In this document: in pieces, positions 9,275 to 64,000 of the stretch | Position numbering within the stretch: position 1 is the first letter of the stretch | Layout: each line of letters begins with the position of its first letter | From: a bacterium | GTDB taxonomy: Bacteria; Hinthialibacterota; Hinthialibacteria; Hinthialibacterales; Hinthialibacteraceae | Direction: 5' to 3' | NCBI GenBank assembly: GCA_963663405.2 | Contig: CAXXSM010000144.1 | Location: 1 to 64,000 of the forward strand | DNA: 64,000 bases | Notes under the pieces: model-generated | Seen by the model: the letters and a program-made list of their open reading frames with translations, nothing else | Told to the model about the DNA's origin: nothing | The model's database searches: none | Position numbers and translations under genes: made by a program

Positions 9275-9387
9275 CCTGGATCTCTATTCACCAGATTCCA
9301 CGGCATAAAATTCATTGAAATTCAGAATATACAAAACATCAAGTTCTCATAAAATGTTCATTCATACGAGACAGAAGAGAAAAGCGT

Positions 9388-9786: not shown

Positions 9787-9814
9787 AATCAAATTAGGGA
9801 AAAGGAGTCGTATC

Positions 9815-10720
9815 ATGAAAGTGATTAGAGTGTTTCAGATCGGAGTGTTGCTGAGTTTTGGAATGTGTAGTATCTGTTTTTCACAAGTGAGTGAACCGTC
9901 ATTAGAAACCATTACGGTTGAAATTCCTAACGTGGTTGAGGAGGCCATACCGCTGAAAATGGTCCTTATTCCTGCAGGTGCGTTCACCATGGGATCATCG
10001 ACCGAAGAACGCAGAAGCGATCCAAGAAGTAATGCCGTGGCTGATGCGGACTGGCCGCAGCATGAAGTTACAATCTCCCATCCGTTTTATTTCGGCATAT
10101 ATGAAGTAACCCAAGCGCAATGGACGGCGGTAATGGGATACAATCCGGCCAGTCGAATAGGCATAGACATCCCCGTCAATAATGAAAGTTGGATCGAGTG
10201 TCAGGAATTTATCGAAAAGATTAATGAAATGGGTCTTGGAACATTTCGTCTTCCGACAGAAGCGGAATGGGAATATGCCTGCCGCGCCGGAACCACGACA
10301 AGGTTTTTTTATGGAGATGTTCTGGAAACAAATGACTTGGATGAGTATAGCCCGATTCATGACCTGTACATGTGGTGGTGTGGAAATTGTGTGGCAGAAG
10401 AGACGCCTCTTCCTGTCGGTTTAAAACTTGCTAATCCCTGGGGACTTTATGACATTCATGGGAATGTCTGGGAATGGTGTGAGGATTGGTGGGAAAAGCC
10501 ATGGGATTGTGGCGCCCAAGTGGATCCCACCGGTCCGGAAACCGGCACGGCGCGTGTAGTACGTGGAGGGGGCGCTCTTGGGTATGCTCAAGGTTGCCGA
10601 TCGGCGGATCGCCGCTGCGATTTCTGTACCCCTGATTACCAAGTCCCACATATCGGTTTCCGTCTCGTAAAGGAATACGAAGAAGTTTCCAGTGTGGACT
10701 ATTTTTCTCTCTATCAATAA
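9815..10720 (+). CDS. Formylglycine-generating enzyme (FGE-sulfatase/SUMF1) family secreted protein
   Basis: Signal peptide after RBS aaggag; IPAGAFTMGS, EVTQAQW, FRLPTEAEWEYACRAG, NPWGLYDIHGNVWEWC, RVVRGG, IGFRLV. Confidence 0.9.
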   Translation: MKVIRVFQIGVLLSFGMCSICFSQVSEPSLETITVEIPNVVEEAIPLKMVLIPAGAFTMGSSTEERRSDPRSNAVADADWPQHEVTISHPFYFGIYEVTQAQWTAVMGYNPASRIGIDIPVNNESWIECQEFIEKINEMGLGTFRLPTEAEWEYACRAGTTTRFFYGDVLETNDLDEYSPIHDLYMWWCGNCVAEETPLPVGLKLANPWGLYDIHGNVWEWCEDWWEKPWDCGAQVDPTGPETGTARVVRGGGALGYAQGCRSADRRCDFCTPDYQVPHIGFRLVKEYEEVSSVDYFSLYQ

Positions 10721-10804
10721 ATGCTTTCATTTCTTCCCAGTCTCTGTTTGGCAGGCTAGGGAGGATGCCCTGTGAAACAAAATTCAGCCAGGTGAGAGAC
10801 GATC

Positions 10805-11938
10805 ATGAATAGAAACGGTATTCATATACTTACATTCTTCCTGCTAGTATTAATCACCACTATGACCGCCTGGGGCGATGTTCAAGCCAAGAGAATTGTG
10901 ACCGGCCGGGTCAATTCCTATTTTCTGCCGGGAACTCAAATTACCGTATCGATTTATGTGACGGGCGATCCAGGTTCTGTGACGGTCATCGAACAACCCC
11001 CGGCGGATTGGACAATTACTCAAGTGCAGAATGAGGGCGTCATCGCTGATGGGCAAATTATATGGAATATAACGGGATTTACCGGGAATCAAACCCTACA
11101 ATATTTTCTTATGCCACCATCCCCCGCTGACGCTGCCCTGGATGGAATTTTTTTTGGTAAAGTGAATGAGGCGGAGATTAGCGGAATGAATATTTTGTTA
11201 TGCCCCATACCCACACCGGGGAAACAAGTCCCGATGAAGACCGGCCTGGCATACCCCTATTGGTTGTATTTACCGGAGGAGTACGGAATTATCGAACAAG
11301 ATTGGCCTATGATTCTATTTTTACATGGAGGGCCAATGATAGGAGCCATGGGTTCTCTAACCAATGGCGCGCTGACATCATTCCTGAATTTTTCATCGAA
11401 TCGGGAAAAATATCCGGAATTATTTCAATGCGTTGTTGTATCTCCATATTGTTATGAGGAATGGTGGACAAATTCTCTTTTGTATGAAGTTGTCGCTGAA
11501 GTATCGTCGAAATACCACATTGATACCCAGCGAATCTATGTAATGGGAGTCAGCATGGGAGGATTTGGCGCGTGGAGTTTTGCCGGCGCTTATCCGGAAT
11601 GGGTCGCCGCCGCGATTCCCATCTGTGGCGCGGGAGTCGAGATATATGTGGAAGAATTACATTCTACCATTCCGGCGGTTTCGTTGGAAAATCTGGTTTC
11701 CATCCCGATATGGGCGTTTCATGGCGCGAAAGACAGCCTCGTCCTGGAAGCGTGGGAAGCCCAAACTGTACAAGATCTGTTGGCGATGGGGGGGAATGTA
11801 AAATACACTGTTTATCCCAACGCTGGTCATCTTGACACCCCTAACTACGCATATAACGATCCTGAGGTTTATCAATGGCTGCTGCAGCAGAGAAAATCGC
11901 GCCAATCCGCCATATTCATTTATGAAAATTTCAAATAA
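10805..11938 (+). CDS. Secreted alpha/beta-hydrolase (esterase/peptidase) with an N-terminal beta-sandwich-like domain
   Basis: YWLYLP, LFLHGG, nucleophile elbow GVSMGG, FHGAKD, YPNAGH. Confidence 0.85.
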   Translation: MNRNGIHILTFFLLVLITTMTAWGDVQAKRIVTGRVNSYFLPGTQITVSIYVTGDPGSVTVIEQPPADWTITQVQNEGVIADGQIIWNITGFTGNQTLQYFLMPPSPADAALDGIFFGKVNEAEISGMNILLCPIPTPGKQVPMKTGLAYPYWLYLPEEYGIIEQDWPMILFLHGGPMIGAMGSLTNGALTSFLNFSSNREKYPELFQCVVVSPYCYEEWWTNSLLYEVVAEVSSKYHIDTQRIYVMGVSMGGFGAWSFAGAYPEWVAAAIPICGAGVEIYVEELHSTIPAVSLENLVSIPIWAFHGAKDSLVLEAWEAQTVQDLLAMGGNVKYTVYPNAGHLDTPNYAYNDPEVYQWLLQQRKSRQSAIFIYENFK

Positions 11939-12059
11939 ATGTCAACTATATGTTGACATAACCGAATCCAGTTCCGTTAAATTCATATCATCTGATGAAT
12001 TGCCTTCGAATGGCGATTGATTGTTAGTAGTGAACGGATTATTGATTAACGATATTCGA

Positions 12060-12847
12060 TTATCGAGAAGATGCTTGAGCATTCCTCTCTAAGCGTTCGT
12101 ATTCCTTAATCAATTGCATGACGATATCCGGTATGGAAGCCATCAGGTTACAAGTCAATCTAATATCATTATTCAGATCGAACAACTGCCATCCATGTCC
12201 TAGACTTTCCTAGACCGCTTTGTAGTTTTTCCAAAGAATTGCCCGGCTGTTTCCCAAGCGCCAATACAAAAATTGATGAGATGATTTCCCTCTCCCCGTT
12301 AATGCGTCTGTTGGTTTTTCCATCGATTTGTTGTGAAAATGTAATTTTCGAAAATACTAAATTAAGGTTCATCCTGTAAGTGAGTACGCAATGTAAAAAT
12401 ATATTCTCTTTTCATGGAAGATTGTGTATCCATGTTTACCCAGACTTCATGCTCTGGCGCAAGCGCCAGTATCTGGGCCACTATAATATGTCCTACCGGC
12501 GCTCGCGCCGGAGCCTTAGTGGGACAAAAGAAAATAGCCCGAGGATTTCAATCCTGGGGATAGAGGAATATGCTTTCTCATTAGAAGCAGCGTCTACTAA
12601 TAGTACTCACTTACCGGATGAGCCAAAAAAAGAAAAGCGATGATTCCAACTGCCCAAACAAAACAAAACTCAACGTTATTAAAATTAGCTCAATTTCCGA
12701 TCCCATACCGATATTGTGGAAACACGACGTGCCCAAAAGATACTGTTTCTGAGCTTTAATGGATTCTTGCGCGAGTGTGATGACCGCATTCGTGCACATG
12801 AAAATGATCGCAGCGATGATCAGGGGAATTCAATTGTGTGATTTCAT
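12060..12847 (-). pseudogene. Decayed sulfatase gene: C-terminal remnant 12060-12278 and probable signal-peptide remnant near 12847
   Basis: My translation of 12278->12060 is HQFLYWRLGNSRAILWKNYKAV*ESLGHGWQLFDLNNDIRLTCNLMASIPDIVMQLIKEYERLERNAQASSR*, a typical sulfatase tail with an internal TAG at 12210-12212. IDGK lies upstream in another frame. ATG 12847 gives MKSHN*IPLIIAAIIFMCTNAVITLAQE. Confidence 0.6.
12439..12526. repeat. Two inverted copies of a REP-like nested hairpin
   Basis: ctggcgcaagcgccag lies inside an outer stem cccaga...tctggg (about 12439-12477). ccggcgctcgcgccgg lies inside tgtcc...ggaca (about 12489-12526). The same core recurs at 39554-39577. Confidence 0.65.
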
Positions 12848-13085
12848 GTTTTTTATCCTTTCTATTTGATATTGATGCGCATTTAAATAGAATATAACCA
12901 TAACGCGTTTGATTCACATAACGAGATGAGTTACGAAAAGTATACTGATTTGCATAATAATTAATCCGGACTCCGGCTCCCGGTGAAAACCGAACTGGTG
13001 AATTGAATTCTAGGATTGTGAGTATAGAGCGCTTGATCATATAACCGGTTTTTGTTGCTTCTTTCTCGAATTCAACAAACGTACA

Positions 13086-15244
13086 TTGGAGAGTCCATTG
13101 AACGATTGTAATTATGCTGATGAATGCAAGGGGGGGGAAGAACTACTGGAAAGCTGTATAGTGGAGGAGGACCTTGGATTAACGTTTGAAGACTTGTTCG
13201 ATCTTGATGAGATTCAAACGATCCAAGACGCCTTTGCGAATGCCACGGGGGTCGCATCAATTATTACACAGCCAGACGGACGTCCCATCACTCAACCAAG
13301 CAATTTCTGCCGTCTTTGTCGCGACATCATCCGTCATACGGGAAAAGGATTGGAAAACTGCATGCGTTCGGACGCCATAATCGGCCATCCCAATCCCGAT
13401 GGCCCGATCGTCCAACCTTGCCATAGCGGTGGACTCTGGGATGGTGGCGCTAGTATAAGTGCCGGAAACAAGCACATCGCCAATTGGTTGATCGGCCAAG
13501 TCCGCAACAAAGCGCAAAATGAAGAACGTATGCTCGAATACGCCCGTGAGATTGGCGCGGACGAAGATGAATTCCGGTCAGCGTTACAGGAAGTTACCAT
13601 CATGTCGACGGAACAATTTCAGCATACCTGCAACACGCTTTTTTTGTTTGCTAAACAGATGTCACAATTGGCGTATCAGAACATACAACAACAAGCCCGG
13701 GCAATCCATCGCCGCAAACGGGCGGAAGAGGCGTTAAAGAATTCAGAAGCCTTGTATCAATCCCTTGTACAATATTTACCACAGGGTATTTTCCGCAAAG
13801 ACTTGAAGGGGCGATTTACTTTTATCAACCAGAAAGTCTGTGAATATGTCGGATTCAAAGAAGAAGAGATTATTGGAAACACTGATTTTGATTTGCTCCC
13901 AAAAGAATTGGCGGAAAAATATCAGCATGATGACCTTCGTGTTTTTCAAACACAAGAAATGTTCGAATGTATCGAAGAGAACCAAAGCCGCAGTGGTGAG
14001 AAAATATACGTACATGTTATTAAAACTCCTATCTACAATGCGGAAGGAAAAATTATTGGGCTTCAAGGCATTTTTTGGATATTACTGAAAAGCAGAGAAT
14101 GGAAGAAGAATTGCTAAAAGCAAGAAAACTGGAATCGGTCGGTATTCTCGCAGGAGGAATCGCTCATGATTTCAACAATCTTTTAATGGTAATCCTTGGT
14201 AATATCTCTCTTATCAAATCGTTTTCGAGTTTGAGTGATTTCATTTCGCAGCGATTGCAAGAAGTTGAAAAAGCCATCCAACGGGCACAGGATTTAACCC
14301 AGCAATTACTCACGTTTTCAAAAGGCGGCGCGCCGGTTAAAAAGACTATTTCGATCACAAAACTTGTCGAAGAAACCACTGCTTTCACCCTGCGAGGATC
14401 AAACGTTCGATGCGAGTTCGATCTCCCTGATGATCTCTGGTTTATTAATGTGGATGAAGGGTAGTTTAGCCAAGTGATCCAAAACATAGCGCTCAACGCT
14501 GTCCAGGCGATGCCCGGCGGGGGTGTTTTAACGATCAAAGGAAGAAATGTTCCAAATGAAGATACGAAGGACTTAATGATCCATTCTTCAGAGGTAAGCG
14601 ATTTTATCGAATTGACAATCCAGGATCAAGGATCAGGTATACCGGATAAGGATTTACAAAAAATATTTGATCCTTATTTTACAACCAAATCCAAAGGCAG
14701 TGGGCTGGGACTCGCTTCCGCTTATTCGATTGTCAAAAATCACGGGGGAAGGATCGCTGTCCAATCCGAGTTGCAGAAAGGGACGATTTTTACGATATAT
14801 CTTCCCGTCTCTAACAAACCGGTTTCCCCACAACAGGAATTTGAAATGAATAAATCGGTTTCAGGACATGGACGGATTCTTATTATGGATGATGAGCCTC
14901 TGATCCGCGATGTCACTTCTCAAATGCTTCAACAGATAGGCTATGAAGTTGTGGCTGCTAATGATGGCGCGGAAGCGATTGAACGATACTTAAGAGCTAT
15001 TGAAACCGGAACTCGATTTGACGCAGTCATCATGGATTTAACAATTCCCGGTGGAATGGGGGGCAAGGAGGCAATCAAAAAATTGCGTGAAATCGATCCG
15101 AATGTGAAAGCCATTGTATCGAGCGGGTATTCAAGTGATCCGGTTATGGCGAATTACCAGGACTATGGATTTGATGGATTCATCAGTAAACCTTATAAGA
15201 TGGATGAACTTGGAAGAGCGCTGCAAACCGTAATGAAAAAGTGA
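13086..15244 (+). CDS. Hybrid sensor kinase PocR-PAS-HisKA-HATPase-REC; one frameshift near 14075 and one in-frame TAG at 14462-14464
   Basis: PocR domain: IQTIQDAFANATGVAS...CHSGGLWDGGASI...WLIGQV. PAS: IFRKDLKGRFTFIN. Kinase: LAGGIAHDFNNLL, IFDPYFTTK..GSGLGL. REC: LIMDDE, MDLTIPGG, SKPY. Confidence 0.85.
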
Positions 15245-15254
15245 GAATATCGGA

Positions 15255-15749
15255 ATGCGACTTTTTTTTATAACATTTCTATCATTTTTATTCTTAGCCG
15301 GATGCGCTGGAGCAGGGAAGAGAACTCCCTCCACCAGTCAGCAAAGTTCGCATCCTGTAAACTCGCAAGAATCATCTCCCTCGATCAACGTTCCGGAACA
15401 CGTCCCTTCCATTTCCGAAGAGAATTCTTCCAGCCCACCGGATTCCAGCGCGCAATCTCCACCATCCGAAATACCAGACAGCGCTCTGACTGAACCAATC
15501 GAAAATACAAGCCAAGAGCCTGAAATCACCATTGAACCGGATTTGGGCCGCCGCAGTCCCTATTTGATCTATTCTGAATCCCTTAAACTGTATACGTCTC
15601 CAAGCGCTCAATATGATATCTTTTTTTCCGATGGCGTTTGGTACGTGCGGTCACGAGGAACGTGGTTTACGGCTAAAAGCCATCGGGGGCCTTGGCGCGA
15701 GATTGAACCATCCGCTTTAATTCCAGCTCTCCAGGAGATAGGACAATGA
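15255..15749 (+). CDS. Ser/Pro-rich lipoprotein of unknown function
   Basis: Lipobox LAGC, low-complexity linker, short aromatic C-terminal domain; overlaps the next start (ATGA). Confidence 0.7.
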   Translation: MRLFFITFLSFLFLAGCAGAGKRTPSTSQQSSHPVNSQESSPSINVPEHVPSISEENSSSPPDSSAQSPPSEIPDSALTEPIENTSQEPEITIEPDLGRRSPYLIYSESLKLYTSPSAQYDIFFSDGVWYVRSRGTWFTAKSHRGPWREIEPSALIPALQEIGQ

Positions 15750-17134
15750 TAAAAGAGAATTCACGGCGGCATTTCCTGCGGCAGGCGGCTTGCCTGGCGG
15801 CATGGCCGTTCGCTTATCCACTTTATACGGCTAATGGATCGAACCAACAATCCCGGCCTAACATTGTATTCATCCTCGCCGATGATCTCGGTTATGGTGA
15901 CGTAGGCTGTTATGGATGTCCTGATATTGACACACCGGCCCTTGATCGATTGGCCACGGAGGGAGTGCGTTTCACCAGCTTTTACGCCAACGCGCCCGAA
16001 TGCACACCCACCCGGACCGCTCTCCTGACAGGCCGCTATCAACAGCGGGTAGGCGGTTTGGAATGCGCGATCGGGATCGGTAACGTGGGACGCTATGATG
16101 ACGCGATCCGGCTGCGGGAAACGCATGATCTCGGCCTCCCCGTTGAAGAAACTTCAATCGCTCGTATGCTGAAAGACGCCGGTTATCGAACCGCCCTGGC
16201 CGGGAAATGGCATCTTGGCTACGAACCGAAATTCTCCCCATTAAAACATGGTTTCGATCGCGCGTTTGGACCCATTGGTGGATCCGCTGACTATTTCCAT
16301 CATACAGAACCGGAAGGATTACACGCTCTTTACGAAAATGGCGAACCCGTCCACCGTGATGGATACATGACCGATCTAATCACCAATGCAGCGGTCCAGT
16401 TCATTGAAGACCAAACGGGGAAAACGCCTTTCTTTCTTTACACCGCCTACACCTGTCCCCATACTCCCTACCAAGGCCCAAACGACCAGACGGACACTCG
16501 CAAAACACCGGAAAATTGGAACCAAGGAACGCGGGAGACTTTCATCGAAATGGTCGAACGCATGGATACGGGAATCGATTCAATCCTCCAAGCGTTAGAG
16601 CGAAAAGGATTCGCAGACAACACTCTTGTCATTTTCGCCAGCGATAATGGAGCCAACCAGCACGGCCGCAACGCTCCATTCTCCGGCTACAAAGGCCAAC
16701 TCTTTGAAGGAGGCGTCCGTGTCCCCTGCATCGTCCGCTGGCCAAAAAAAATCCCCGCTGGAACAGAAACGAATCGCCCAACCCTGATAATGGACTTCTC
16801 CACCTCCATCATCCGCGCCGCCGGAACAGCCCCTCCAAAAGATCGTCCATTTGATGGAATCGACATCCTCAACGAAATTCAAACCAACCAACCTCCAACC
16901 AAACGCCCCCTCTTCTTCCGCAAACGAAGAGGGGATGAAACTTGGAAAGCGGTTAGAGAAGGGAACCTAAAATACATCCATCGCCAAAAAGGTTCCGAAA
17001 TTGAAGAATACCTATTCGATCTTAAACAAGACCCAGCGGAAAAGAATAACCTCTTAACATCACATCCACAGGACAAAGAGCGGCTTGAGAAATTACTTGT
17101 TAAATGGGAGAAAGATGTGCGGCATACTAGATAA
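15746..17134 (+). CDS. Tat-exported Cys-type sulfatase (S1 family)
   Basis: Tat motif SRRHFL; PNIVFILADDLG; CTPTRTALLTGR (CxPxR); GKWHLG; ASDNG; EGGVRVP; LFDLKQDPAEKNNL. Confidence 0.95.
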   Translation: MIKENSRRHFLRQAACLAAWPFAYPLYTANGSNQQSRPNIVFILADDLGYGDVGCYGCPDIDTPALDRLATEGVRFTSFYANAPECTPTRTALLTGRYQQRVGGLECAIGIGNVGRYDDAIRLRETHDLGLPVEETSIARMLKDAGYRTALAGKWHLGYEPKFSPLKHGFDRAFGPIGGSADYFHHTEPEGLHALYENGEPVHRDGYMTDLITNAAVQFIEDQTGKTPFFLYTAYTCPHTPYQGPNDQTDTRKTPENWNQGTRETFIEMVERMDTGIDSILQALERKGFADNTLVIFASDNGANQHGRNAPFSGYKGQLFEGGVRVPCIVRWPKKIPAGTETNRPTLIMDFSTSIIRAAGTAPPKDRPFDGIDILNEIQTNQPPTKRPLFFRKRRGDETWKAVREGNLKYIHRQKGSEIEEYLFDLKQDPAEKNNLLTSHPQDKERLEKLLVKWEKDVRHTR

Positions 17135-18103: not shown

Positions 18104-19487
18104 TCACCAATTCCTAACCAACTCTTCTACAGCCTCCAAACTCCCCTTCGCCACACGGAAATCATTTTTATACTTCAAATCCCGCTCACTGGTATGATAA
18201 TCGGCGGCGGCTTCAGAAAATTTCAATCCCGTCGCGGTGCTAATAACCGCCGTCGCGTCATTTTCCTTTACCGTCCCATCCGCTCGCGCTTGGAAGAGCG
18301 CGGAAAGGGCGATCCCCGTTTGTGGGCAGATATCTACTCCACTCCGGGTGACGGCCATCTGCGCGTCCTGAATTTCATCTTCCGAGACACGGTAGAAATG
18401 CGCGTCAAACGATTGGATCAATTCCGCGACGCGCGGAAACGATACGGGATCACAAATATTCGCCGCTGAAGCGACACTCGGTTGATGTTTTCCCGGTTTG
18501 TACGCATCGGGCGCGCGCCGGTTCTCATCCCATCGTACCAGGGTATCGCATACCGCCGCTTGCCCGACAAGAATCCCCGGCAGCCGGTCAATCAAGCCAT
18601 GCAGCCGCGCCCGTTTCAATCCCATTAACAGCGCAGTCAAATTCCCCGCATTGCCGACGGGAATCGAGATCCAATCCGGCGCCTTCCACCGTAAATCCTG
18701 GCAGATCTCCAGTCCGATGGTTTCCTGCCCAGCGATGCGGAACGCGTTCTTTGAATTGACCAGCACCAATTCGGAATGAGAACGGCTGAATTCTTGAATG
18801 ATCCGCATACATCCGTCAAATCCATCTGGGTGATCAACTGCGATCACTTTCGAACCAAACTTCAACGCTTGTGTCAACTGCGCAACGGAAATCTTATTAT
18901 ACGGAACAAGAATCACACAACCCAAACGGTCCCCGCGCATACGCCGCATACGCCGCCGCCGCCGCTGATGTGTCTCCCGTGGACGCGCAGCAGACCCCGG
19001 TGATTCCCAACTCAGGATACGCCATTTGCAGACGAAGCACTTCACTTACCGCAATGGACATTCCACGATCTTTGAAACTCCCGCTCGGATTCTGCCCTTC
19101 CAGTTTCAAATAGGTCGGCCCAACACCCAGTTCCTTCCGCAGCCATAGCGGCAGTTCGAACAGATCTGTGCATCCTTCAAACAGCGCCATACTCGCTTCA
19201 ACCGGAAATTCTGGCAGAATGATCTCTCTCCATTCAAATACGCCGGAACCGGATGGATAACGCTGGGCGATTTCGCTCCAGCGAATACGATCGAAATACT
19301 TCTGCGCGGACTCACCATGTCCGATTTTATCCCGGATAAAGTCCTCGTCCCGTTCCACCAGAAGCAATCCCCCGCAATCGTTCTTCGTGCAGGTATAGGT
19401 GAAACGGTCGGTTGGATACTGCGCGCCGCATTGGATGCATTGTTGATAGTAACGCACATCTTGCCCTAGCGTAGTGGATGGAGACAT
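18104..19487 (-). CDS. thrC: Threonine synthase (frameshift near 18900-18940)
   Basis: KLEGQNPSGSFKDRG (PLP lysine), CASTGDTSAAAAAY, LVNSKNAFRIAGQET, PVGNAGN, STATGLKF. Confidence 0.88.
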
Positions 19488-19652
19488 ACAGCAAACCTCT
19501 TATCAATTAAACGTTCGACACATGAAATAATTCATGACCGGAACTAATCATATACGTAATACGATAAAGGGTGAATGTGTCCAGAAAGAAAGGCGCCTTC
19601 TTTTAGTCTGCAAACCATGACGCTAGCCTAAAGTTACGATATTCTGATAAGA

Positions 19653-24095: not shown

Positions 24096-25339
24096 TCACT
24101 CCGCCGCTTTCCCCACTGGAGCGGGCATCGCATTTCGTAAATCAACAGGCGTCTCAACAGGCGCCCCTAGCGCCTGCAATTGCGGACACCAGTCGTAAGG
24201 GTACCGCTTCGGTCTTAACGGTTTATACGCGGGAACGAATTCCCATACAGTCTCCCCTTGCGGCGTCACTTCGAAAATACGTTCATCCGCCGAAACGACA
24301 ATAACGGTGTTACCGTTTTTTAACCGTTGTTCCGATCCCGCGAAAGCCGAAAAAAAACGAAAAACTGGCTCGTTCCGAACCATACGACCAGGCAATTTCA
24401 TCCATTACCGGATCGACTTCCAATACATATGAATGTCCCGCATGTTGAATGTCACGGTACGAAATGCCATTATCAAAAACCAGGATATTGCCCGCCCCCG
24501 GAAAACCGAGTGGAATCATTCTCGCTTCGTGTTGATGGGCGAATCCACCCCGAAAATCGCCTGAATACTCCCAAACAATATTTTTTGTTTCTTTATCGAT
24601 TAAGAAGATCGTATTCAAGTTCCGTGTGCTAATCAGTACGTTTCCCGGTTTGAAACGAGTATCCCCATTTTTGATACCAGGGATTTTCTGGAATGGCTTG
24701 TAGAGAATTTAGATGCGTCCAATCGGTCAAACCCTCCGATGGCGTGTAGTGATTCAAGTCCAGATGTTTGTATGAATGCCATTCCCATACTGTTTTACCC
24801 TCATTGTCGATTTCAAAGATTAGGGCGGCTTGTATATTCTCGTGATTTCGCCGTTTGGGATCTGTGATTTTGGCTTTGTATTCATCTGGAACCGATTCAT
24901 TGAAATTGATCAATGTATTCCCATTGTCTAATCTCTGAAAATCATGATGAGGCGTGCGTTCCGTATTATATTCCCATACTTTTTCCCCGTCCCAATTCAA
25001 CTCGATCAAACGGTTTGTTTCATTTCGGATTCGGTCTCTCGGTTCTGTTCCACTGCTGCCTGTGCAGAATGTCAGTAAATTACCGTTCCGCAACAGCTGC
25101 GCCCGGTCGAACGCGCGAACCGTGTCCCAAATATGAACGATTCGTCCGTTCATGTCCATCAAGGCGGGATAGTATTCCTTATACAGCAACAAGGTATATC
25201 CATTGCCACATTTTTCTGGTTGATAAATTGTCACACCTTTTGGATAGACAGCCGGTTTGGACATCACCAAACGAGGCCCTTCCATCAACAACACCAATAG
25301 CAATCCAATTCCAAAGAAACTGATTGACTTCGATCGCAT
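24096..25339 (-). CDS. Arylsulfate sulfotransferase (ASST)-like protein, copy 2, frameshifted
   Basis: PAVYPKGVTIY, HHDFQRLDNGNTL, DWTHLNS, HQHEARMI, NILVFDNG, QRLKNGNT, RPKRYPYDWCPQL. Confidence 0.82.
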
Positions 25340-25506
25340 ACTATCACCTTTCGCATCGTTTATGATCTTGAAAAAAATCACGTTGCGTGTTTTCGCGTAA
25401 CCAACGCGCCCCTTCGAAGCGAGTCCATTCAATAGGATAATAGAATCGCGGGACTACGCGAAGGATCAGAGATAATCCCGCCTTATTTTAAAACGGGAGT
25501 GGAGGA

Positions 25507-31562: not shown

Positions 31563-34500
31563 TTATTCGGGAATTCCTACAGCGTCCGCGGCGCCTAAGG
31601 CGGCTACCTCCGCCGCGGTCATCGCGTAGTCACGAATCTGTAGGCTGTTGATATAACCATTGGCGTTTTGTTCGTTATCATCCGCAAATATCAAAAAAGT
31701 CTCCAGATAGTGAGAAGCGGCCGTCCAACGCAATTTGCGTGAGTGTTTGAACGGGCATTCCGTCGATGTAACTTGTCATCGTGCCGGCAGCCCCGTCTAC
31801 AACCAACGCTACACGGTACCATGTTGTGTTAGCGATGACGCCGCCGAAACTTTCATCGACGCCAATACCATTATTACTGGCGAACCAGTCCGCATTGTCG
31901 CTATTATCCGAAGACGTTTGCAATAAGGCCACTTGCCCTTGCGGTTTTGAATCCAGCGAGATGTCCATGATGATCGAGTACTGATTCACATTGGCGCCGC
32001 CGCCGTTCGCGGTGATCTGGTTCGGTACATTGAAATACGTACCCCGGATGAATCGCGCCACCTCACCACGTTCCTGATTGATCGTGACATTTCGATAGGA
32101 GACCGATGGACTGGATGAGGGAGCGGCCGCTCCCATACTCAGGGCTTGTCCACCGGCTGTAGAGGATGTCAGATCACCGTTGAATTCCCAATTATAAATC
32201 ATCGACAATGGGGTATTCGTCGGTGTCGCGGTATTGGTCGGCGTCGCGGTTGGTGTCGGTGTCTCTGTGGGCAACTCGGTCTCCGTGGCCGTCGGAGTAC
32301 TTGTCGGATAGATCGTACCCGTCTGAGTTGGGACCGGTGTCAATGTGTCCGTCGGAACCGGCGTCGCTGTCGGTGTTAATGTTTCGGTCGGTGTCATGGA
32401 TGGCGTCAGTGTGTTTGTCGGAGTCGGTGTCGCTGTGGCTCCTGGAATAAGAATACCGTCCGCATCCGCGGCGCCCAGAGCGGCGATCGACGCGGCGGTC
32501 ATCGGCATATTCCACATTTGTACGCTATTCACGATAACGTTTCCATTTTGCTGATTATCGTCGGCGAACAGAAGCGCGGTCGCTCCCAGCGCAAACCGTC
32601 CATCCAATGCGATTTGAGTGAGAGTCTGCACAGGCGCGCCGTTGATATAACTCGTCATCGTTCCAGCGGCCGCGTCGACAACCAGCGCCAATCGGTACCA
32701 AGTCATGTCGGCGATCGCGCCTCCAAAACTTTCGTCCACGCCAACACCGTTGCCACTGATGAACCAGTCCGCATTGTCAGAGTTGGACGGATTGGTTTGT
32801 AAGAGGGAGACAAATCCAGTCGGTTTGGACTCGACCAGAACGTCCATGATGATCGTGTATTTATTCACCAGTGCGCCGCCCCCATTCGCTTCGAACCCGT
32901 GGTTCGCGCTCAAATACGTGCCTCGCGCTAAGCGGGCCGTTGTGGCGCTTTCCTGGTTGATTGTACGATCACGGTACGTGATCGACGGAGAGCTAGCTGG
33001 CGCCACCGCGCCCGGTGTGAGAGCGGTCCCACCTGTTGAGGACGCCAGATTTCCATTGAATTCCCAATGGGAGAAGGTAACCGGCTGAGGCGCTGGTGTG
33101 TCTGTTGGAGCCGGTGTGTTTGTTGGCCCTGGTGTGTCCGTCGGCGTCGCGGTTGGTTCGGGCGTTACGCCTTCAACAGGTGTGTCTGTTGGAGCCGCAG
33201 TTGGTGGAACCGGTGTGTTTGTCGGCGTTGGTAGCGTTAATTCAATGGGGATACCCGCTGCGCTAACGCTGCCCAAATTCGCGATTTGTTCCGCAGTCAA
33301 AGCGTAATTCCGCATCTGGAGGCTGTTGATATATCCACTTGCGTTCTTCTCGCCACCGTCCGCTAGAATCAACGCGTTTGGAGCCAGCGACCAGCGGCCA
33401 TCCAGGGTGACTCCCGTCATGGTCTGCACAGGAGAACCATCGATATAACTGGTCATGGTCCCCGCGACAGCGTCGATTACGAGCGCGATTCGATACCATG
33501 CCCGGTTGCTGACAACGCCACCATAACTTTCATCAATGCCAACGCCGTTTCCACTCGCGAACCAATCCGCGTCACCGGCGTTGTCTTCATCCGTTTGCAG
33601 AAGTCCCACGCGGCCCATCGGTTTGGAATCCACCCAAATATCCATGATCAGGGTGTACTGATTCACGAGTGAACCACCGCCATTTGGCAGGAATCCATGG
33701 GGCACGCGGAAATACGTTCCACGAGTAACACCGGGCTGTGTAGGGCCCTTTCTTGATTGATTGTTCGTTCCGTATAACTGATTTCAGCGGAAACTCGCTG
33801 GAGCTGCGGCTGACAGTTCAAGCGTGGCGCCACCGTTGGAGGAACTCAGGTCCGTTGTGAAATCCCACTGATATACGAGTTGGGGCTGAGGCGTTGTTGT
33901 TGGGACAAGGGTCGCTGTCGGAGTGGGAGACGCCGTCGAAGTCGGTTCCGGTGTATCTGTTGGCGGCAGTGTGGGGGACTGGAGTTCCCGGCACAGTCGG
34001 CGTATCCGTCGGAACCGGTTGTGTTCGTCGGAGTCGGTTCCGCGGTGTCTTGCGGTATACCAGCGGCGGATGCGGCGCCTAGATTCGCGATCTCTTCCGC
34101 GGAGAGAGCGCGTAATTCCGGCATTTGAACGCTGTTGATATATCCACTATCGTTTTCTTCATTATTATCTGGCCAGCAACAAGACCGTCGGATCGAGCGA
34201 CCAACGCCCATCCAGTTCGATCTGCGTAAGCGTTTGAACCGGCGCGCCATCGATGTAACTGATCAATGTGCCTGCAACCGCGTCCACGACCAATGCGACA
34301 CGGTACCAAGCCCGATCTTCAATCGTTCCACCGAAGCTTTCATCTACACCGATTCCGTTGCCGCTCACGAACCAATCCGCGTCATCGGAATTGTCCGAAC
34401 TGGCTTGCAATAGGGCCGCTTTCCCCAAGAGGTTTCGCATCCACCCAGATATCCATGATAACGGTGTATTGATTGACTTTCTGCCCACCGCCGTTGGGAT

Positions 34501-36234
34501 CAAAGGCCGTGTGTCGCGATCAGATACGTTCCACGGGTGAACCGGGCTGTTTCCGCTCTCTCTCCTGGTTAATTGTTCGTTCAGTGTAGCTAATTTCAGG
34601 TGAGCTCGCTGGCGCCGGTATACTCCATTTCAAGACTGGCGCCGCCCGGAGGTCGTGGCGTCTAAATTCTCTCGAGAAATCCCACTGGATTACCGCGGGT
34701 GGTTGCGGAGTCACGGTCGCCGTTGGAGTGAATGTCGCTTTCGGGAGGCAGTGTATTGGTTGGGCTCGAGGGTATCCACCGGCGTTGGAGTTGGTTCCGG
34801 CGCGGTTGGATGATCCATCGCGGCTAAATATATTGATCCACTCGTCGGATTCACAGCGCCGGTAAATGCGATTAATCCACTTTGTGTTCCGATAATGTTT
34901 GTTATACTGTTGACGCTCGCGGCCGTCAAAGTCCCACTTTAATCGGCCGGTATTTGGATTGCGGAGCGAGCAGATTGGCGGAAACATCCGTCCCGCTGAC
35001 CGAGACGATGCAACCCCGTTCCCACGACCATAACTCATCGCCATCATCCAGATCGCCATTGAATTCACCCGCTCCGCAATACTGACGGAACCGGAGGGAT
35101 TGATGGCTTTCGGAAAAGAACGCTGATCACACTCCGCGATGGACGCATGAAGCCCGTGATAGTTCCTTCTTCTAAAACAGGGTTCGATGACGCCGATCAC
35201 ATTGATCGGAGCCGTGTTGCGGGGATCTTGATCTTCTTCGCTTCCGTGTTGACGGTTGTTGCCTTGGCTCGCAGCGATAATTTCGTTCTGGCCATCGCCG
35301 TTCAGATCCGCCACAACCATTTCAACGCCGCCATTGCCACGGAATTTTGGTTCGAATCCCGCGTAGGAATACCGGGTTCCAATTCCATAACTCTCATTAA
35401 TATTCAAAACGTGGAAAATCGTCTGGGATGTGACACTGTTCGTTTGGCCGACCAGCAGTTCATCGTCGCCGTCTCCATCCAGATCACCAGCCGCCAATGA
35501 TAAGCCTCCATTCGCGTTTTGCTCTTGGGCATTGTCGGATAAACCATTGAATTGGCCCACCACTGCCCAGCCATTCGGCGCGGCTTGGCCTGTGTAAGTG
35601 TAAATCCGGATGACGCCGTTTCCTCCATACCCCTGTGCGACAGCGATTTCATTCGATCCGTTACCGTTGAAGTCTCCAACCGCTGTCCGCACTTCTCCGC
35701 CGTTATAGTTCACGGCGCTTTCATCGCCCATTGGGAAGGCTTTCAAACGTATGGCCGATCACTTCTTTGGTCGAGCCGTCCCGTGGAATGATGATGTTCG
35801 GATAAATCGGCCCTTCCGCTGTGATAGGTCCTAGAGAAGCGACGATATCGGGTACACCGTCATTATTCACATCACCAGTGGAGATATATGTAATTCGTCC
35901 GGTTCCGCCGCCAATCGCGTCCCGAAACGCTCCACCCGCCGCTTTGAACGATAATATGATGGAAGTGAGTGTACCCGCATCGGCGTTTAGATTCCGCACA
36001 TTCACCAATGTTTCGCCCCCCAATCCTTGGGACAAGACGAGATCCTGAATTCCATCTCCTGCATTGTTTGTCTGTGTTTGTATCGCAACGGATAAAGTAC
36101 CGGGTTAACGCTACCGAGGCGGACACGTTCATCGCGCATAGGCTTACTACTATCAATGTCGATAGAATAGACCAATACGCATAACGATGTCTCATACTCC
36201 TAAGAGACAAACCTTCAAACAAGTTTCGGCTCAT
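31563..36234 (-). CDS. Very large secreted protein: FG-GAP/VCBS-like N-terminal region and four LamG/concanavalin-like repeats joined by Pro/Thr linkers (heavily frameshifted)
   Basis: Signal peptide; GDVNNDG, GDFNGNG, GDLDGDG and ADLNGDG motifs. Four ~200-aa copies of W.F.....GG..VNQY..IMD...WYR.ALVVD...YIDG..LDGR..INS.Q separated by PTPT tracts. Ends GAADAVGIPE*. Confidence 0.75.
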
Positions 36235-36831: not shown

Positions 36832-39513
36832 TCACATCTGCCTGGCTTCTTCCACCAGCTCATTCAACATCTGCCACGCTTCCACAGGCGATAGCGTATT
36901 AATATCGATATCACTCAATCGCGCTCTGAGCGGTTCTTCCAGCATGGAAAAGAGCGAGATCTGATACCGGTCGCTTTCATTGACAACGGGGGCTGTGAGA
37001 TGTTCACCGTTTTCCAGCCGTTTCAGGATCTTCCGCGCGCGGTTCGTAACTCGCTTGGGCACACCGGCGAGATCGGCCACGTGTATCCCATATGAATGAT
37101 CCGTGTAACCCGGCGCAATGCGGTACAGAAACCGCACCGATCCTCCCTCTTCACTCACCTGTACATGATAGTTACTTACGCGTTTGTGCGTGTTCTCAAG
37201 CGCCGCTAGTTCATGATAATGGGTAGCGAAAAGGGTTTTAACTCCTTTACCTCGTACGCCGTGCAGGTATTCTACAATCGCCCATGCGAGGTGAAACGCC
37301 GTCGAATGTGCTGGTTCCCCGGCCGATTTCATCAAGAATGACAAGGCTTTTCGGCGTTGCGCTGGTAAGAATGTGCGCCGCCTCACTCATTTCAACCATG
37401 AATGTGGATCGCCCGCGCGCTAGATCATCCGAAGCGCCTACCGGCCTGAACAAACGGTCTACAACGCCGATCGACGCCGATTGTGCGGGGACGAATGAAC
37501 CGGTCTGCGCGAGCAGTACAATCAACGCCACTTGGCGGATAAACGTCGATTTTCCCGCCATATTCGGCCCCGTGATGATTAATACCTGCCCTTTCTCTTG
37601 ACAAAGAAGACAATCATTCGGAACAAATTGATCCACGGCCGGTGATTGTTCTAAAACGGGATGCCGACCCTCTTTGATCTCAATCGTCCCATTATCCGTA
37701 ATCTCCGGGCGGCAATATTGATATCGCGAAGCCGCTTCCGCCATGCTTTGATAGACATCCAACCGCGCCAACAATCGAGCCAGGCGTTTTTAATCGCGGA
37801 CCATATCCTCGCACACTTTCCAATACTTGTTGGAGCAGAGTATACTCGACTTCTTTAATGCGGTCTTCCGCATGAAGCACTTTCGCTTCAAATTCTTTCA
37901 ATTCGGGTGTGATAAACCGCTCGGAATTGGTCAGAGTCTGTTTTCGGATATAATGGTCCGGCGCTTTGTCTTTATGAATATTGGTTATTTCAATGTAATA
38001 TCCAAATATTTTATTGTATGAGACTTTAAGCGATGGTATATCCGTCTTTTTCCGTTCTTGTTCCTGCAGCCGGGCGATATACCCTCTCCCATCTTTCCGG
38101 ATCGCCCGCAGTTCATCCAATTCCTCATCGTATCCGTCACGGATCATCCCCCCTTCCCGCACGGTCAACGGTGGGTTCTCCTGCAATGCCGAGGCAAGCA
38201 GTTCCCGTATCTCCATCACCGGATCCAATAATTCCCCCGCAGGAGACACCGTTTCACTTTGATCGTCCGCTTCGTCCTTCTCCCGTAACCCCCGCCGGAT
38301 CACCGAATCCTCCCCCACTTCTGATAGGAATTGATTTAACTGTGGGATCGATTCCAGCGTTACCCGCAGCATGGTCAAATCCCGCGCGTTGGCGTTTCCA
38401 AAGATCACCCGGCCCAGCAAACGCTCCAGATCGTGAACCATCCGCATCGCTTTACGAAACTGATCACGGATCTGAGGCTGCTCATAAAAAAACACGTACA
38501 ACTTCCTGCCGGATTCGTATCTTCTCCGCGTCCACCAATGGCCGCACGATCCATTGCTTGAGAAGCCGTCCCCCCATTGGCGTAACGGTCTGATCGATCA
38601 CGCCCAGCAGCGAAAACTTTTTCCCCCCTTCTCCAGCGCTGCGCAGCAGTTCAAGATTACGCTCTGTGCTCTTGTCGATAACGAGATATGCGTTTCGCCG
38701 GTACAACTCAAGAACTTTGATGTATTGAAGCGTTTCCTTTTGATTATCCTTAAGATACGTATAAATCGCCGCCGCCGCCGCATGAGCCAATTCCCGTTCG
38801 GATTGGGCTATTTTAATATCCGGATCGTGTTCTTCATCTATACCCGCAGCGGTGAATAATTCACTCGAAAACGCTTCAGGCGGCAAATCGGTAATTAAAC
38901 AATCGGCGTGTGAACGGATCTGTTTCTCAAACGAAGCGTCTCCCGCATTGGCGGTCTCTACAATCAATTCGCTGGGATTCAGCGTCCCCAATTCCGCCAA
39001 AATGGTCCGCCAACTCTCATTTCCATTTTCCCAAGTCGCGCGAAACTCCCCCGTCGTAACATCGATACAGGCCAATCCCCATCCATACAAATTTCCATTG
39101 TATAGAGCCGCGAGATAATTATTCTCTTTCCCATCAATAACGTCAGCGTCGATTATCGTTCCTGGAGAGATTGTCCGCGTCAATTCGCGGTTAAGAAGTT
39201 TTTTCCCTTTTTGCGGTTCTTCCGTCTGTTCGCAGATAGCGACCCGGTATCCTTTCCTCGTCAGCCGATAGATGTAATTTTGTATCGCATGATAGGGAAC
39301 TCCCGCCAATGGAACGGTTTTTCCCTGCCCGGTGGATTTTTTCGTCAACGCGATATCCAGCGCCTCCGCCGCTTTTACAGCGTCATCCATGAACATCTCA
39401 TAAAAATCACCGCACCGGAACAACAAAATCGCATCCCCACAGCGCTCTTTCATCGAAAGATACTGCCGCATCATAGGAGAATAATCTTCAATCGGTCTTG
39501 AAACAGATTTCAT
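36832..39513 (-). CDS. mutS: DNA mismatch repair protein MutS (split over 4 frames)
   Basis: [78 protein letters not shown]. Confidence 0.95.
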
Positions 39514-39538
39514 ATTTTTTCAAACTAAAGGTAGGAAG

Positions 39539-60363: not shown

Positions 60364-60530
60364 AACTCCATCCAACGTATATCTTCCATACGATCATACA
60401 TTGATCGATCTAGCCGTCTTACAAATTTATAAAATAGCGTCTACAGCAATTGACTAACAAATGCGAAGTATTGTATTTTGGTATGCTATAGAACGTTTTT
60501 ATATTTGTAAATGTATAGCGGGATGGGCCA

Positions 60531-63500
60531 ATGCGTGTTTTTATCAGTCATTCTTCGAATGACAAACCAGCCGTCTTGAAACTTAATCAAGAACTTCGCG
60601 ATCGCGGGTTTGAGACGTGGATGGATCAATTCGAGATTCTTCCTGGTGATAATATTGTTGAGAAAATTGATGAAGGGCTTGAGAAGTCCGACGCTGGGAT
60701 CATTGTTCTTTCAAAAAATATTGACGGCAGTCCATGGATTAAAACGGAACTTAATTATCTTATTTATGCTTGTATCAAAGAAAGCAAGAGACTAATCCCA
60801 GTCGAATTAGAAGAAGGTGGTTTCATCCCGCCGCTGATTCGGCCTTTGGCAAAGTGCGGGATTCATGATATTGACGCTATTACTATGGCGCTTCGTCAAG
60901 AGACGCCTGATCCATCGTTCACCGGTCCTGCATCGCTTGATTCTATTCTCATTCGCTTAATGCGGAACGAAGATCATAGTATTCAAATCACTGCGAGCAT
61001 TGGCGGGAAAACGTATGGGGAAACGCGATTTGATGATCTGCCTTCTCCACTCGTTACACTGCAAAATCAATTCTTACAAGGCTTTAAAACTTGGAACGCG
61101 CGTGATCCGGTTGATGCGGAACGTGTCGCGAATGAGAAGAGTGTGGTTGAACTTGGCGCCGCGATTCGTGATTTCTGCCTGCCGGAAGATTCGGGCGATG
61201 TGTTGACCAGCGTGATCGATAACAGTAACAAAATTAATAAAACGGTGGAGGTTTGTTTTGAGGCGGATGATCCCGCTTTACTGGGTTTGCCGTTTGAAGC
61301 GCTCCGGCTGCCGGATAACCGTCTTCTCACCACGCAGCCGACGGTGGTAATGTACCGCCGGTTGGCGGGGGAACTGGATGCGAAATGGACGCCTTTGCCC
61401 TCTCCGATTAAGATTCTTGTTGCGGTGGGCGCGCCGGATGAGGGACAAACCGGCGCGGTTGTCCTTGATTACGAGCGAGAGATGCAGATCATTCTCGATG
61501 CTGTTGAACAGGCTCAGCGCCTTGAAAATGTGCAGGTGCGCATTCTTGAGGTTGGGCATCCTAAAGTGATCGGTGACGCGATCGAGCGCGATACCTATCA
61601 TGTCCTGCATCTCAGCTGTCATGGAATGCCTGGTTTTTTGGAGTTGGAAGACGAGGAAGGGCGCGCCGTCAAAACCAGCGCGGACGATCTGCTTGATCCC
61701 ATTTTGACGAAAGGGAAGCCGTTGCCGCTGGTTTTTCTTAATTCCTGCAAAGGAGGCGTGCAGGAAGAGGAGACCGCTAGTTTTGCGGAAGCGTTGTTGC
61801 GTAAAGGTGTTCCGTCGGTCATAGCGATGCAGGCTTCTGTGAGCGATTGGTATGCGACAGAATTGGCGCGGGCGTTCTACAATCATCTAGCGGTGATGGA
61901 TCGTCCATGGGTCAGCCGGGCGTTGGCTTTGGCCCGGAAAGATTTGGAAGATGCGCGTCAAAACGCCATCCAGACGGGCGCAGGTTTAGGCGAAACGCAG
62001 CCGGAATACGCTACACCGGCGTTCTACCTCGCTGGTGAGGAACAGCCCCTTGCGGATTATTCGCTTACGAAAGAACCATTGACGAAAAGGCCGGTGTATG
62101 AAGTTTCGGGCCTGTGCCGCAATTGCGGATCGACGATCTGATCGGCCGCCGGAAGGAACTGCGGGAAACCTTGCGGACGCTGAGGGATCCAAACCGGCAG
62201 TATGCGGGTGTTGTATTGACCGGGATCGGTGGTGTGGGAAAAAGCGCGCTCGCGGGCCGGGCCATGCGCCGTCTGGTGGAAGAGGATTTGGCTCGTCCCC
62301 GCGTGTAAGGGCCGTTTGAATTTGGGGGATATCGCGTTGGTTCTTGGTTTGGAATTGATGCAATCCAAGAATGCGGATTGGAAAAATCTTGGTAAATTGT
62401 TGTGTAATACTGAATTGAATGACATTGCGCGTATGCAATTGATTGGAAAATGTTTGGCGGAAGCGCCGGTTGTCTTGGTTTTGGATGATTTTGAACAGAA
62501 TCTCACCCAAGATGGAGCCGCGTTTCTTGATCCTGACACTGATACGTACCTGCAATTTCTCGCACAAAGCGCGCGGAAAGGGCGTCTCTTAATCACTTGC
62601 CGGTATCCCGTTCCCAACACCAGCGCTTTTTTCCGTCATATCTCCATCGGCCCGCTCAGCCCATCCGAATCCCGGAAATTGATCCTCCGCCTGCCGGAAC
62701 TGAAGGGGCGGCCTGTATCCGATATTGTGCTGATTCTGCGTGTCATCGGCGGTCATCCACGTATGCTTGAATTACTCGACAGCCTGTTAAACCACGGCAC
62801 AGGGCGGCTTCCACATGTGACGGTAAAACTACAGGATTTGCTCAAGAAAGCTGAGTTGGATGAAAAGACCACCGCCGCCGATTTGGAGGAGGGGATTCAA
62901 CAGACATTGCTGCTGGGCGCGCGCGATGTCTTTCTCGCCGAATTGTTTGCGATCGCTAAAGACGAGTCGATTGATGAAATCCTGCTGCAGACGGCGGTTT
63001 CCAACCTGCCGATTTCACCAGAAGGAGTGGCGCACATGCTCACCGGGGCGCCCGCCGATCCCGCGCCGGTGGAACAGGCGTTCGATCGATTAGAACGCCT
63101 CTCGTTGATTTACCGGTTTCCTGATGGATCGGCCTGGATCCATCGTTGGACAGCCGAAGGCCTGCTTGCGTTTGACTCAGAAGACGCATTCCATCAGCGC
63201 TGCGTCCGCGCGGGCCGCTATCGTATGTGGAAGGGAGAGAAAGATAAGTATGGATTAACAAATGAGATAGAAGCCATCCGTAATTATTTAAAGGGCAAGG
63301 ATTTTGATGAAGCTTCAAAGGTTGCGCTTATGTGTATCAATACCTTAAAGCGTTTTCAACAAACGGCGCAAGTCGCGGCGCTGGCGGGTGAAGTCCTTGA
63401 AAGCCTGCCGGAAGAGCATAAGCGTTTTGCCGCCATCGCGGATGAGGAAGCGCAATCTCACTTGGCTCTCGGTTTTACGGAAAGAGCGTTTGAACGGTAT

Positions 63501-64000
63501 CAACAACTTTGCATGATGCATGAGCGTCTGACTAATGAAAATCCAGATCGTGCCGATTATCAGTACGTTCTTTCAGTCTCCTATGAGCGAATGGGTGATC
63601 TATATCTTGATCTGGGCCAAGGAGGTAAGGCCCAAGAGGCTTATCAAAAGTTATTGGATATTATTAAACAACTGGTTAACTCGGAGCCAGATCGGGCAGA
63701 CTATCAACGCCAACTATCCGTCACGTACAATAAAATAGGTGACCTGTACCGTGCCCTGGGTGAGGGAGGCAAGGCCCAAGAGGCGTACCAGCGCTCGCTG
63801 GAGATTCGGGAGCGTCTGGTGAAAATGGAGCCGGACCGGGCGGACTATCAGCGTATCCTCTCGGTTTCGTATAATAAAATGGGCGACCTGTACAGTGCCC
63901 AGGGCGAGGGAGGCAAGGCCCAAGAGGCGTACCAGCGCTCGCTGGAGATTTTTGAGCGTCTGGCGAACTCGGAGCCGGACCGGGCGGACTATCAGCATGA
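60531..64000 (+). CDS. TIR-CHAT-STAND(NB-ARC-like)-TPR multidomain NLR-like protein (frameshifts near 62112 and 62290-62300; 3' end outside window)
   Basis: TIR: VFISHS..DK, W.DQ.EI.PG, SPWIKTEL. CHAT: LPFEAL, LHLSCHG, VFLNSC, VIAMQ. Walker A GIGGVGKS. Then an open frame to the window end with VLVLDDFEQN, ITCRY, GGHPRML and 48-aa TPRs EPDRADYQ..LSV.Y.K.GDL. Confidence 0.88.
63535..64000 (+). repeat. 144-bp tandem coding repeats (48-aa TPR units)
   Basis: gagccggaccgggcggactatcagc and ggaggcaaggcccaagaggcgtaccagcgctcgctggagatt recur at a 144-bp period. Confidence 0.85.

Follow-up and report, generated by a model that had tools for sequence, protein, structure and literature searches.

The far end of a 64,000-nucleotide stretch of bacterial DNA (contig CAXXSM010000144.1 of assembly GCA_963663405.2, from a member of the Hinthialibacteraceae; positions 1 to 64,000 of the forward strand, hereafter the window) raises the question of whether one polypeptide carries two different effector enzymes on a single NLR-like switch, and whether the copy found there is a working gene, a broken one or a recent fusion. 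The original prediction, made from the letters alone, had described at 60531-64000 a receptor in which a TIR domain and a caspase-like CHAT domain precede a STAND NTPase and a TPR sensor. Sequence comparison indicates a widespread two-headed NLR-like family of which the window gene appears to be a real member. With moderate confidence, it is concluded that the locus encodes a single-gene NLR-like (STAND) receptor of a conserved TIR-CHAT-NTPase-TPR family, the gene being probably intact and the breaks in its reading frame being errors of a low-quality assembly.

The gene occupies 60531-64883 on the forward strand, extending 883 nucleotides (nt) past the end of the window, and, as judged from the list of open reading frames (ORFs) and an alignment with homologues, it is read in three pieces through two single-base frame breaks: piece A (60531-62138, 536 amino acids (aa)), whose codons begin at multiples of three; piece B (62102-62305, 68 aa), shifted back by a single base; and piece C (62283-64883, 867 aa), in which the first frame is regained. 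Read in order, the pieces encode a TIR_2 domain, a CHAT domain, a STAND P-loop NTPase and about ten 48-residue TPR-like repeats. As had been predicted, the TIR glutamate and the CHAT His/Cys dyad are held in one frame, that of piece A, which is matched in Pfam by TIR_2 over aa 3-101 (E 6e-25, 88.5 bits against a cutoff of 28) and by CHAT over aa 240-475 (E 3.1e-25, 89.6 bits against a cutoff of 24). In piece B, AAA_16 is matched over the P-loop with E 3.1e-07 at 31.5 bits, slightly below the 32.6 cutoff on this short sequence, while piece C is matched by TPR families, TPR_12 among them at E 1.8e-19; no Pfam match to NB-ARC was obtained on the window pieces, and PF00931 is listed for one homologue. 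The motifs are SPWIKTEL (Glu73) in the TIR domain, LSCHG (His364) and LNSC (Cys406) in the CHAT domain, and, farther on, GIGGVGKS as Walker A, VLVLDDFE as Walker B, TCR as sensor-1, and GGHP; the Walker motifs, the GHP motif and the TPRs that had been expected downstream are thereby all located, with Walker A in the shifted frame.

Structural comparison leads to the same assignments. An AlphaFold2 model of aa 1-536, built from 112 aligned sequences, has a mean predicted local distance difference test score (pLDDT) of 91.4 and a predicted template modelling score (pTM) of 0.90, with the TIR domain above a pLDDT of 90 and with disorder limited to a Pro-rich linker at aa 124-133 (pLDDT below 50) and to the last residues. 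The modelled TIR domain superposes on AbTir (7uxu) with a root-mean-square deviation of 1.4 Å over 94 columns at 32% identity, and a Foldseek search of the PDB matched it to the TIR domains of MAL, AbTir and BtTir. In sequence it lies nearest to the bacterial TIRs 7uxr, AbTir (7uwg/8g83), PdTir (3h16) and TcpB/BtpA (4c7m), and Glu73 aligns with the glutamate of the WxxxEL motif in AbTir, PdTir and BtTir, which is presumably the catalytic residue. The protease half (aa 137-530) was matched by Foldseek to the activated SAVED-CHAT filament 8tl0 (E 1.5e-13) and also to Csx29 of Craspase (8eey_B, 393 columns), separase and the anti-sigma factor DdvA. Searches with the family profile reached the archaeal TPR-sensor STAND protein PH0952 (6mfv, E 1e-9), which is nearest for the NTPase, together with the plant NLR ADR2 (9qlv, E 6.6e-6), the TIR domain of Roq1 (E 1.6e-10) and the bacterial TIR-STAND-TPR protein 9m0n (E 6.6e-10). 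Of the roughly ten TPR units of the sensor, seven to eight are nearly identical, and they are encoded by a tandem array of 144-nt units (7.2 copies, 85% matches) at contig positions 63678-64721. When nine of the units were compared, 16 of the 48 positions held at least three different residues and the remaining positions were nearly fixed.

Table 1. Positions, strand and supporting evidence of the features of the TIR-CHAT-NTPase-TPR gene
Feature	Position	Strand	Evidence
Two overlapping sigma-70-like promoter matches, weak, just upstream of the ATG	60450-60505	+	Consensus match only
TIR domain, aa 1-122; Glu73 at 60747-60749	60531-60896	+	Pfam, alignment to bacterial TIRs, conservation, model
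Pro-rich flexible linker, aa 123-136	60897-60938	+	Low pLDDT, poor conservation
N-terminal beta/alpha subdomain of the protease module, aa 137-239, containing the step in third-position GC	60939-61247	+	Model, Foldseek, composition
CHAT caspase-like protease, aa 240-500; His364 at 61620-61622, Cys406 at 61746-61748	61248-62030	+	Pfam, conservation, Foldseek
Frame break 1, loss of one base in comparison with relatives, frame 0 to frame 2	62104-62110	+	Homologue alignment, contigs
First part of the STAND NTPase, read in the shifted frame, with Walker A GIGGVGKS at 62222-62245	62108-62287	+	AAA_16, conservation, consensus match
Frame break 2, extra T in a TTT run, frame 2 to frame 0	62287-62289	+	Homologue alignment, contigs
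Remainder of the NTPase and helical/winged-helix-like region; Walker B at 62472-62495, sensor-1 TCR, GGHP at 62748-62759	62290-63482	+	Conservation, profile matches
TPR-like sensor array	63483-64000, on to 64883 beyond the window	+	Pfam, repeat analysis

The same architecture, for which a search had been proposed, proved to be common. A search with piece A among longer proteins returned 392 matches at E<=1e-3 (7999 candidates scored), and the best 120 of these homologues are 42-59% identical to the query and 972-1960 aa in length; the match covers 96-99% of the query in 111 of them and 69-90% in the nine that have no TIR_2, and TIR_2 is listed in 111, AAA_16 in 117 and TPR families in most. 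When cluster representatives at 50% identity were searched exhaustively, 26,691 matched at E<=1e-3 and 288 at E<=1e-30; among the best 150 of these cluster matches, 42 align in a single stretch that starts no later than residue 6 and ends no earlier than residue 500. In species-representative genomes, at least 580 stretches fit the search patterns and at least 119 encode a relative, 80 of which were kept for the analysis of their loci. These 80 come from Acidobacteriota, Gemmatimonadota, Chloroflexota, Planctomycetota, Cyanobacteria, Alpha-, Beta- and Deltaproteobacteria, Bacteroidota and Actinomycetota, and in 55 an unbroken ORF of at least 1000 aa is present, many of the others being cut by contig ends. 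An uncultured Holophagae (locus L041) carries two TIR-CHAT-AAA_16-TPR genes in tandem on the same strand, at 3937-8835 (1633 aa) and 9001-13188 (1396 aa).

Conservation within the best 120 homologues extends to the residues on which activity would depend. The CHAT histidine and cysteine, the first Walker B aspartate, the sensor-1 arginine and the GHP histidine are kept in all 120, the Walker A lysine in 119, the GHP proline in 118, and the TIR glutamate and the second Walker B aspartate in 114 each. Because these catalytic motifs are near-invariant, all three enzymatic modules are held to be under purifying selection. Distant relatives match only from about residue 200 onward, yet 10 of the 13 sampled carry a TIR_2 or SEFIR head, while of the other three, two are head-less and one has a head lacking a domain assignment. 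With the domain order correct and with catalytic residues that are intact in this gene and near-invariant across the homologues, the original prediction of a two-enzyme NLR-like receptor is a fair reading of the locus.

The second part of the question concerns the frame breaks. In an alignment with 17 full-length homologues, the reading switches after RPVYEVSG and again after RRLVEED; since the homologues are continuous through both points and the 60 residues between the breaks agree near-exactly with the family consensus, each break corresponds to a single-base indel, with one base lost near 62107 and one T gained in the TTT run of the second site. Programmed frameshifting was rejected, as the homologues are collinear in one frame. 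Read evidence was drawn from Logan contigs of three public runs (X1, X2 and X3) placed on 61400-63000, which are assembled at a depth of 2-4 and are not raw reads. Run X3 (about 93-95% identical to the window) has a T inserted behind 62107 and one base absent at 62287, so that both sites are in frame; run X1 (about 90% identical) lacks one base at 62288, by which the frame is restored there, and 62107 lies outside its coverage. Run X2, which may be the source sample, is 100% identical at a depth of about 2.2 and provides contigs at 61400-62110, 62108-62288 and 62288-62934 that start or stop exactly at both break sites, neither of which is bridged by any contig of that run.

The same kind of damage is found elsewhere in the window. 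The mutS gene (36835-39519, reverse strand) is split into four overlapping frames (38485-39519, 37695-38597, 37250-37789 and 36835-37386) whose Pfam profile coordinates run consecutively from MutS_I to MutS_V, so that three single-base breaks fall in one housekeeping gene and point to indel errors across the assembly. A PALP enzyme is likewise split in two (profile positions 3-77, then 77-293) and an arylsulfotransferase into two or more pieces, as judged by Pfam. Apparently frame-broken genes, all on the reverse strand and including the PALP and arylsulfotransferase genes, lie at 18107-19499, 24099-25453, 1962-4362 and 33849-36104, and a GH95/DUF5703 gene and an FG-GAP repeat gene have overlapping frames of the same kind by ORF pattern alone.

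Both breaks in the receptor gene are therefore very probably assembly or sequencing errors at sites of read disagreement, because the frame is restored in X3 and X1, no X2 contig bridges the sites, mutS and other genes are split in the same manner, and the rest of the gene is free of lesions over about 1450 codons. The alternative is a true recent pseudogene in which both indels are real, so that the product would be limited to a TIR-CHAT protein of 536 aa that lacks the switch and the sensor. It would agree with the presence of both breaks in the assembled sequence, with the X2 contigs, which despite their full identity to the window give no alternative sequence at the sites, with the active insertion sequence (IS) adjoining the gene, and with the broken mutS, which, if real, would favour homopolymer indels. 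However, breaks in several genes of the window, three of them in mutS, would be improbable for a free-living genome of 8.4 Mb, and the unbridged sites, the in-frame relatives and the absence of further decay also tell against this alternative, which is considered improbable. The original prediction had named real frameshifts, and hence a pseudogene, as grounds for its own refutation; on the Logan contigs and the split genes, they are most likely assembly errors, and the gene is probably intact in the living organism. The breaks are accordingly a problem of assembly quality that also affects mutS and other genes, and this copy should not be scored as a pseudogene or a split system.

The third part of the question, namely whether the TIR head is a recent addition, arises from base composition. 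The impression by eye that the TIR segment is AT-richer was confirmed, with a GC content of 0.415 overall and 0.377 at third codon positions (GC3) for aa 1-122, against 0.558 and 0.594 for aa 240-500 and a genome GC of 0.469. GC3 stays at 0.36-0.40 from the start codon to about 61100 and is about 0.6 from about 61160 onward, the neighbouring host genes being at 0.48; the step thus falls near aa 175-240, inside the N-terminal subdomain of the protease module and not at the TIR boundary. An AT-rich 5' end intrinsic to the family was rejected, as the CHAT-minus-TIR difference in GC3 across 67 homologous loci has a mean of 0.003 (standard deviation 0.046, maximum 0.129) and none of the 67 reaches the 0.217 of this gene. 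The ratio of TIR to CHAT identity to the family is 0.81 against a background of 0.96 (standard deviation 0.13), which makes the TIR domain somewhat more diverged than the CHAT domain predicts.

The genome holds a second NLR-like gene on contig C123 (L006 2782-5715, reverse strand), an intact 978-aa TIR_2 - NB-ARC - DUF7779 - TPR_12/TPR_10 protein without CHAT. As a donor of the TIR domain this gene was rejected, being 41% identical over 90 aa, whereas the TIR domain of the receptor is up to 60% identical to TIRs of its own family. The proposal of a grafted module does not hold, given the TIR_2 domain in nearly all of the best homologues, the TIR_2 or SEFIR heads of most distant ones and the position of the step; by sequence comparison, the TIR head appears ancestral to the family and not a foreign graft. 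In the authors' own reading, the head evolves or recombines faster than the core, and this copy probably combines two family alleles that differ in GC history and is not a new fusion, as the compositional step fits recombination between family alleles better than it fits a new fusion.

The surroundings of the gene bear on its role. Upstream lie a DUF1501 gene and a GH43/GH130-like gene, and 165 nt downstream, beyond the window, begins a 2014-bp IS (contig 65049-67062) that has terminal inverted repeats of 35 nt (94% complementary) and encodes a DDE_Tnp_1 transposase of 590 aa and a DUF6788 protein of 116 aa; four near-identical copies are present in the genome (C144, C18 and twice on C122), together with a degraded copy on C132. 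Beyond the IS follow a sodium:solute symporter, a periplasmic binding protein and a response-regulator/GGDEF gene, and the local context is not a defence island. The surmise that a protease substrate is encoded beyond the window found no support, with an IS following the gene and no neighbour conserved in 57 homologous loci; a partner or substrate gene was accordingly rejected. That comparison clustered 439 flanking ORFs within 5 kb at 57 of the 80 loci, 23 having been dropped for short flanks, and the top cluster (7 of 57 loci) is made up of pieces that continue the TPR array or of a second gene copy in tandem; ABC transporters occur in 6 of the 57 loci, histidine kinases in 5 and a small ORF without a Pfam match in 4. 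As a search of 40 related genomes, 19 of which belong to the same family, did not recover the gene itself at E<=1e-20, and as no neighbour is conserved, the gene is a self-contained, patchily distributed accessory gene.

Enrichment in defence islands, which had been suggested as a check, was not seen either: in a scan with PADLOC of the 116 nearest of 271 eligible neighbouring ORFs at 55 loci (E<=1e-15; a crude test with no matched control), four were matched, three of them as generic ABC ATPases and one as bSEFIR. The last is a 388-aa bSEFIR protein of a Bryobacterales (L018 12870-14033, PADLOC E 1.8e-18), encoded directly downstream of a family member and the only clearly immune-type immediate neighbour among the 116. 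Elsewhere in the window, a response-regulator receiver stands beside an FGE-sulfatase-domain protein (9319-10717, forward strand) and a histidine-kinase/receiver fragment beside a sulfatase (14465-17131, forward strand); together with the DUF1501 gene and arylsulfotransferases, these genes give the window a sulfatase-rich character.

It may be asked, on this basis, whether the family is antiviral at all, or whether it regulates development, stress-induced cell death or kin conflict in bacteria of complex lifestyle in response to an endogenous ligand. This is judged unlikely, although the lack of a defence-island signal and of any phage or prophage context would suit it, as would the surroundings of the members, which are common genes of metabolism and signalling, for example those of ABC transporters and histidine kinases. 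The CHAT domain also bears a weak resemblance, far below cutoff (E 5.3e-07), to the NCBIfam model NF045509 of HetF, a protease of cell division and differentiation in cyanobacteria, and two comparative studies place STAND-caspase-TIR systems mainly in multicellular bacteria (PMC8195603, PMC7159879). On the other side, the characterised bacterial STAND proteins with TIR or protease heads that are described in PMC13581612 are antiphage, and the patchy distribution and linkage to an IS suit accessory conflict genes.

The receptor would most likely be a self-contained cell-death or immune receptor with two proximity-activated enzymes. In such a scheme, the TPR array would keep the protein off until a ligand is bound, whereupon nucleotide-dependent oligomerisation would gather the N-terminal heads; in the gathered heads, a composite TIR active site would form for the cleavage of nicotinamide adenine dinucleotide (NAD+) or the production of cyclic ADP-ribose (ADPR), the CHAT protease would be switched on, and arrest of cell growth or death would follow. 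The analysis itself establishes which domains are present, the catalytic residues with their conservation through the family, the solitary genomic setting and the patchy occurrence, whereas the scheme takes the binding of a ligand, the oligomerisation, the two enzyme activities and the role in the cell from STAND/NLR proteins, TIR NADases and caspase-like proteases.

The two heads might instead act in series, either because an ADPR-type nucleotide made by the TIR domain gates the CHAT protease, as in a one-chain type IV Thoeris, or because the protease cuts the protein in order to release or license the TIR domain. A TIR-class head stays with CHAT over deep divergence (TIR_2 in 111 of 120 close homologues, TIR_2 or SEFIR in 10 of 13 distant ones), a pairing that spans Actinomycetota to Cyanobacteria and persists where TIRs have become SEFIR-like by divergence; a flexible linker separates TIR and protease; and the activation of a caspase-like protease by a TIR-made signal is established for type IV Thoeris (10.1101/2024.10.24.620036). 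However, the Thoeris effector is a different caspase-like protein encoded by a separate gene, and neither Pfam nor Foldseek detected a nucleotide-sensor domain between TIR and CHAT. The linker, moreover, is poorly conserved (mean top-residue frequency 0.51) and without a shared motif, and no conserved self-cleavage motif is evident in it across the homologues, which gives no support to a fixed cleavage site for the suggested release of the TIR domain. The computed data do not tell series from parallel action, and action in series is regarded as doubtful; if true, it would unite the logics of the TIR resistosome and the apoptosome in a single polypeptide and would make the protein a fused counterpart to type IV Thoeris.

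Several points weigh against an intact two-enzyme receptor of this kind. No experimental work on any family member was found in the literature, the neighbour scan gave no defence-island signal, and a whole-protein model for the family is absent from PADLOC 2.0 and NCBIfam, in which domain-level matches alone were obtained. Furthermore, each of the corrective indels in X1 and X3 rests on one contig at a depth of 2-4 and is weak singly, although both restore the frame; a very recent and real double frameshift is rated a small but real chance.

Among known systems, the family is closest in plan to the Avs (AVAST) and NLR-like STAND defence proteins (Avs1-21, bNACHT), in which one polypeptide joins an N-terminal effector to a STAND NTPase and a C-terminal repeat sensor, and which are likewise stand-alone, patchy and presumably activated by oligomerisation. 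It differs in that known Avs proteins have one effector head, whereas two tandem enzymes are present here, and in that no defence-island context was found for it; with PADLOC 2.0, which is without models for Avs6-21, no Avs model matched four intact homologues or the window pieces, which gave TIR and CHAT matches at the level of domains. STAND ATPase/caspase systems with WD40 sensors similarly combine a caspase-fold protease with a STAND ATPase and a sensor of repeats, and the protease is likely to be activated by proximity; in contrast, the present sensor is made of TPRs and not of a WD40 propeller, a CHAT-type protease is fused in cis, and an extra TIR domain precedes it. Plant TNL resistosomes (Roq1, RPP1) and bacterial TIR-STAND-TPR proteins (9m0n and the 978-aa gene on C123) share the N-terminal TIR domain with a glutamate at the catalytic position on a STAND chassis, but lack the CHAT module of about 400 aa that this family inserts between TIR and NTPase.

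Type IV Thoeris pairs a TIR domain with a caspase-fold protease in one immune pathway, but does so through two genes and a diffusible N7-cyclic ADP-ribose (N7-cADPR) signal, without STAND or TPR modules; in place of its separate TIR and caspase-like genes, both domains are here fused to the NTPase switch of a STAND-TPR protein. The closest folds to aa 137-530, with E from 1.5e-13 to 1e-6 and the His/Cys dyad kept, are those of SAVED-CHAT (8tl0), Csx29 of Craspase (8eey, 7zoq) and separase, which are triggered by cyclic oligoadenylate, a target-bound CRISPR complex and the loss of securin, whereas the trigger here is presumed to be the STAND NTPase switch. An earlier report noted TIR and CHAT each as N-terminal domains of bacterial NLR-like proteins (10.1101/2020.01.06.895854), and TIR and caspase-like effectors on a STAND chassis are catalogued by comparative genomics in PMC8195603 and PMC7159879. 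No description of a fused bacterial TIR-CHAT-STAND-TPR protein was found in the literature; in the literature searched, the term TIR-caspase led only to the two-gene type IV Thoeris and to one paper on synthetic Toll-like receptors, and CHAT, caspase and TIR are not mentioned in the supplement files of PMC13581612 that were searched, to which further supplements may exist.

TIR domains and caspase-fold proteases are the two executioner modules common to bacterial, plant and animal innate immunity, and here both are carried on one NLR-like switch, in a family of hundreds of members for which no experimental study was found in the literature. An answer to whether the heads operate in parallel or in series, and to what the near-identical TPR units sense, would bear on the origin of apoptosome-like and resistosome-like machines.

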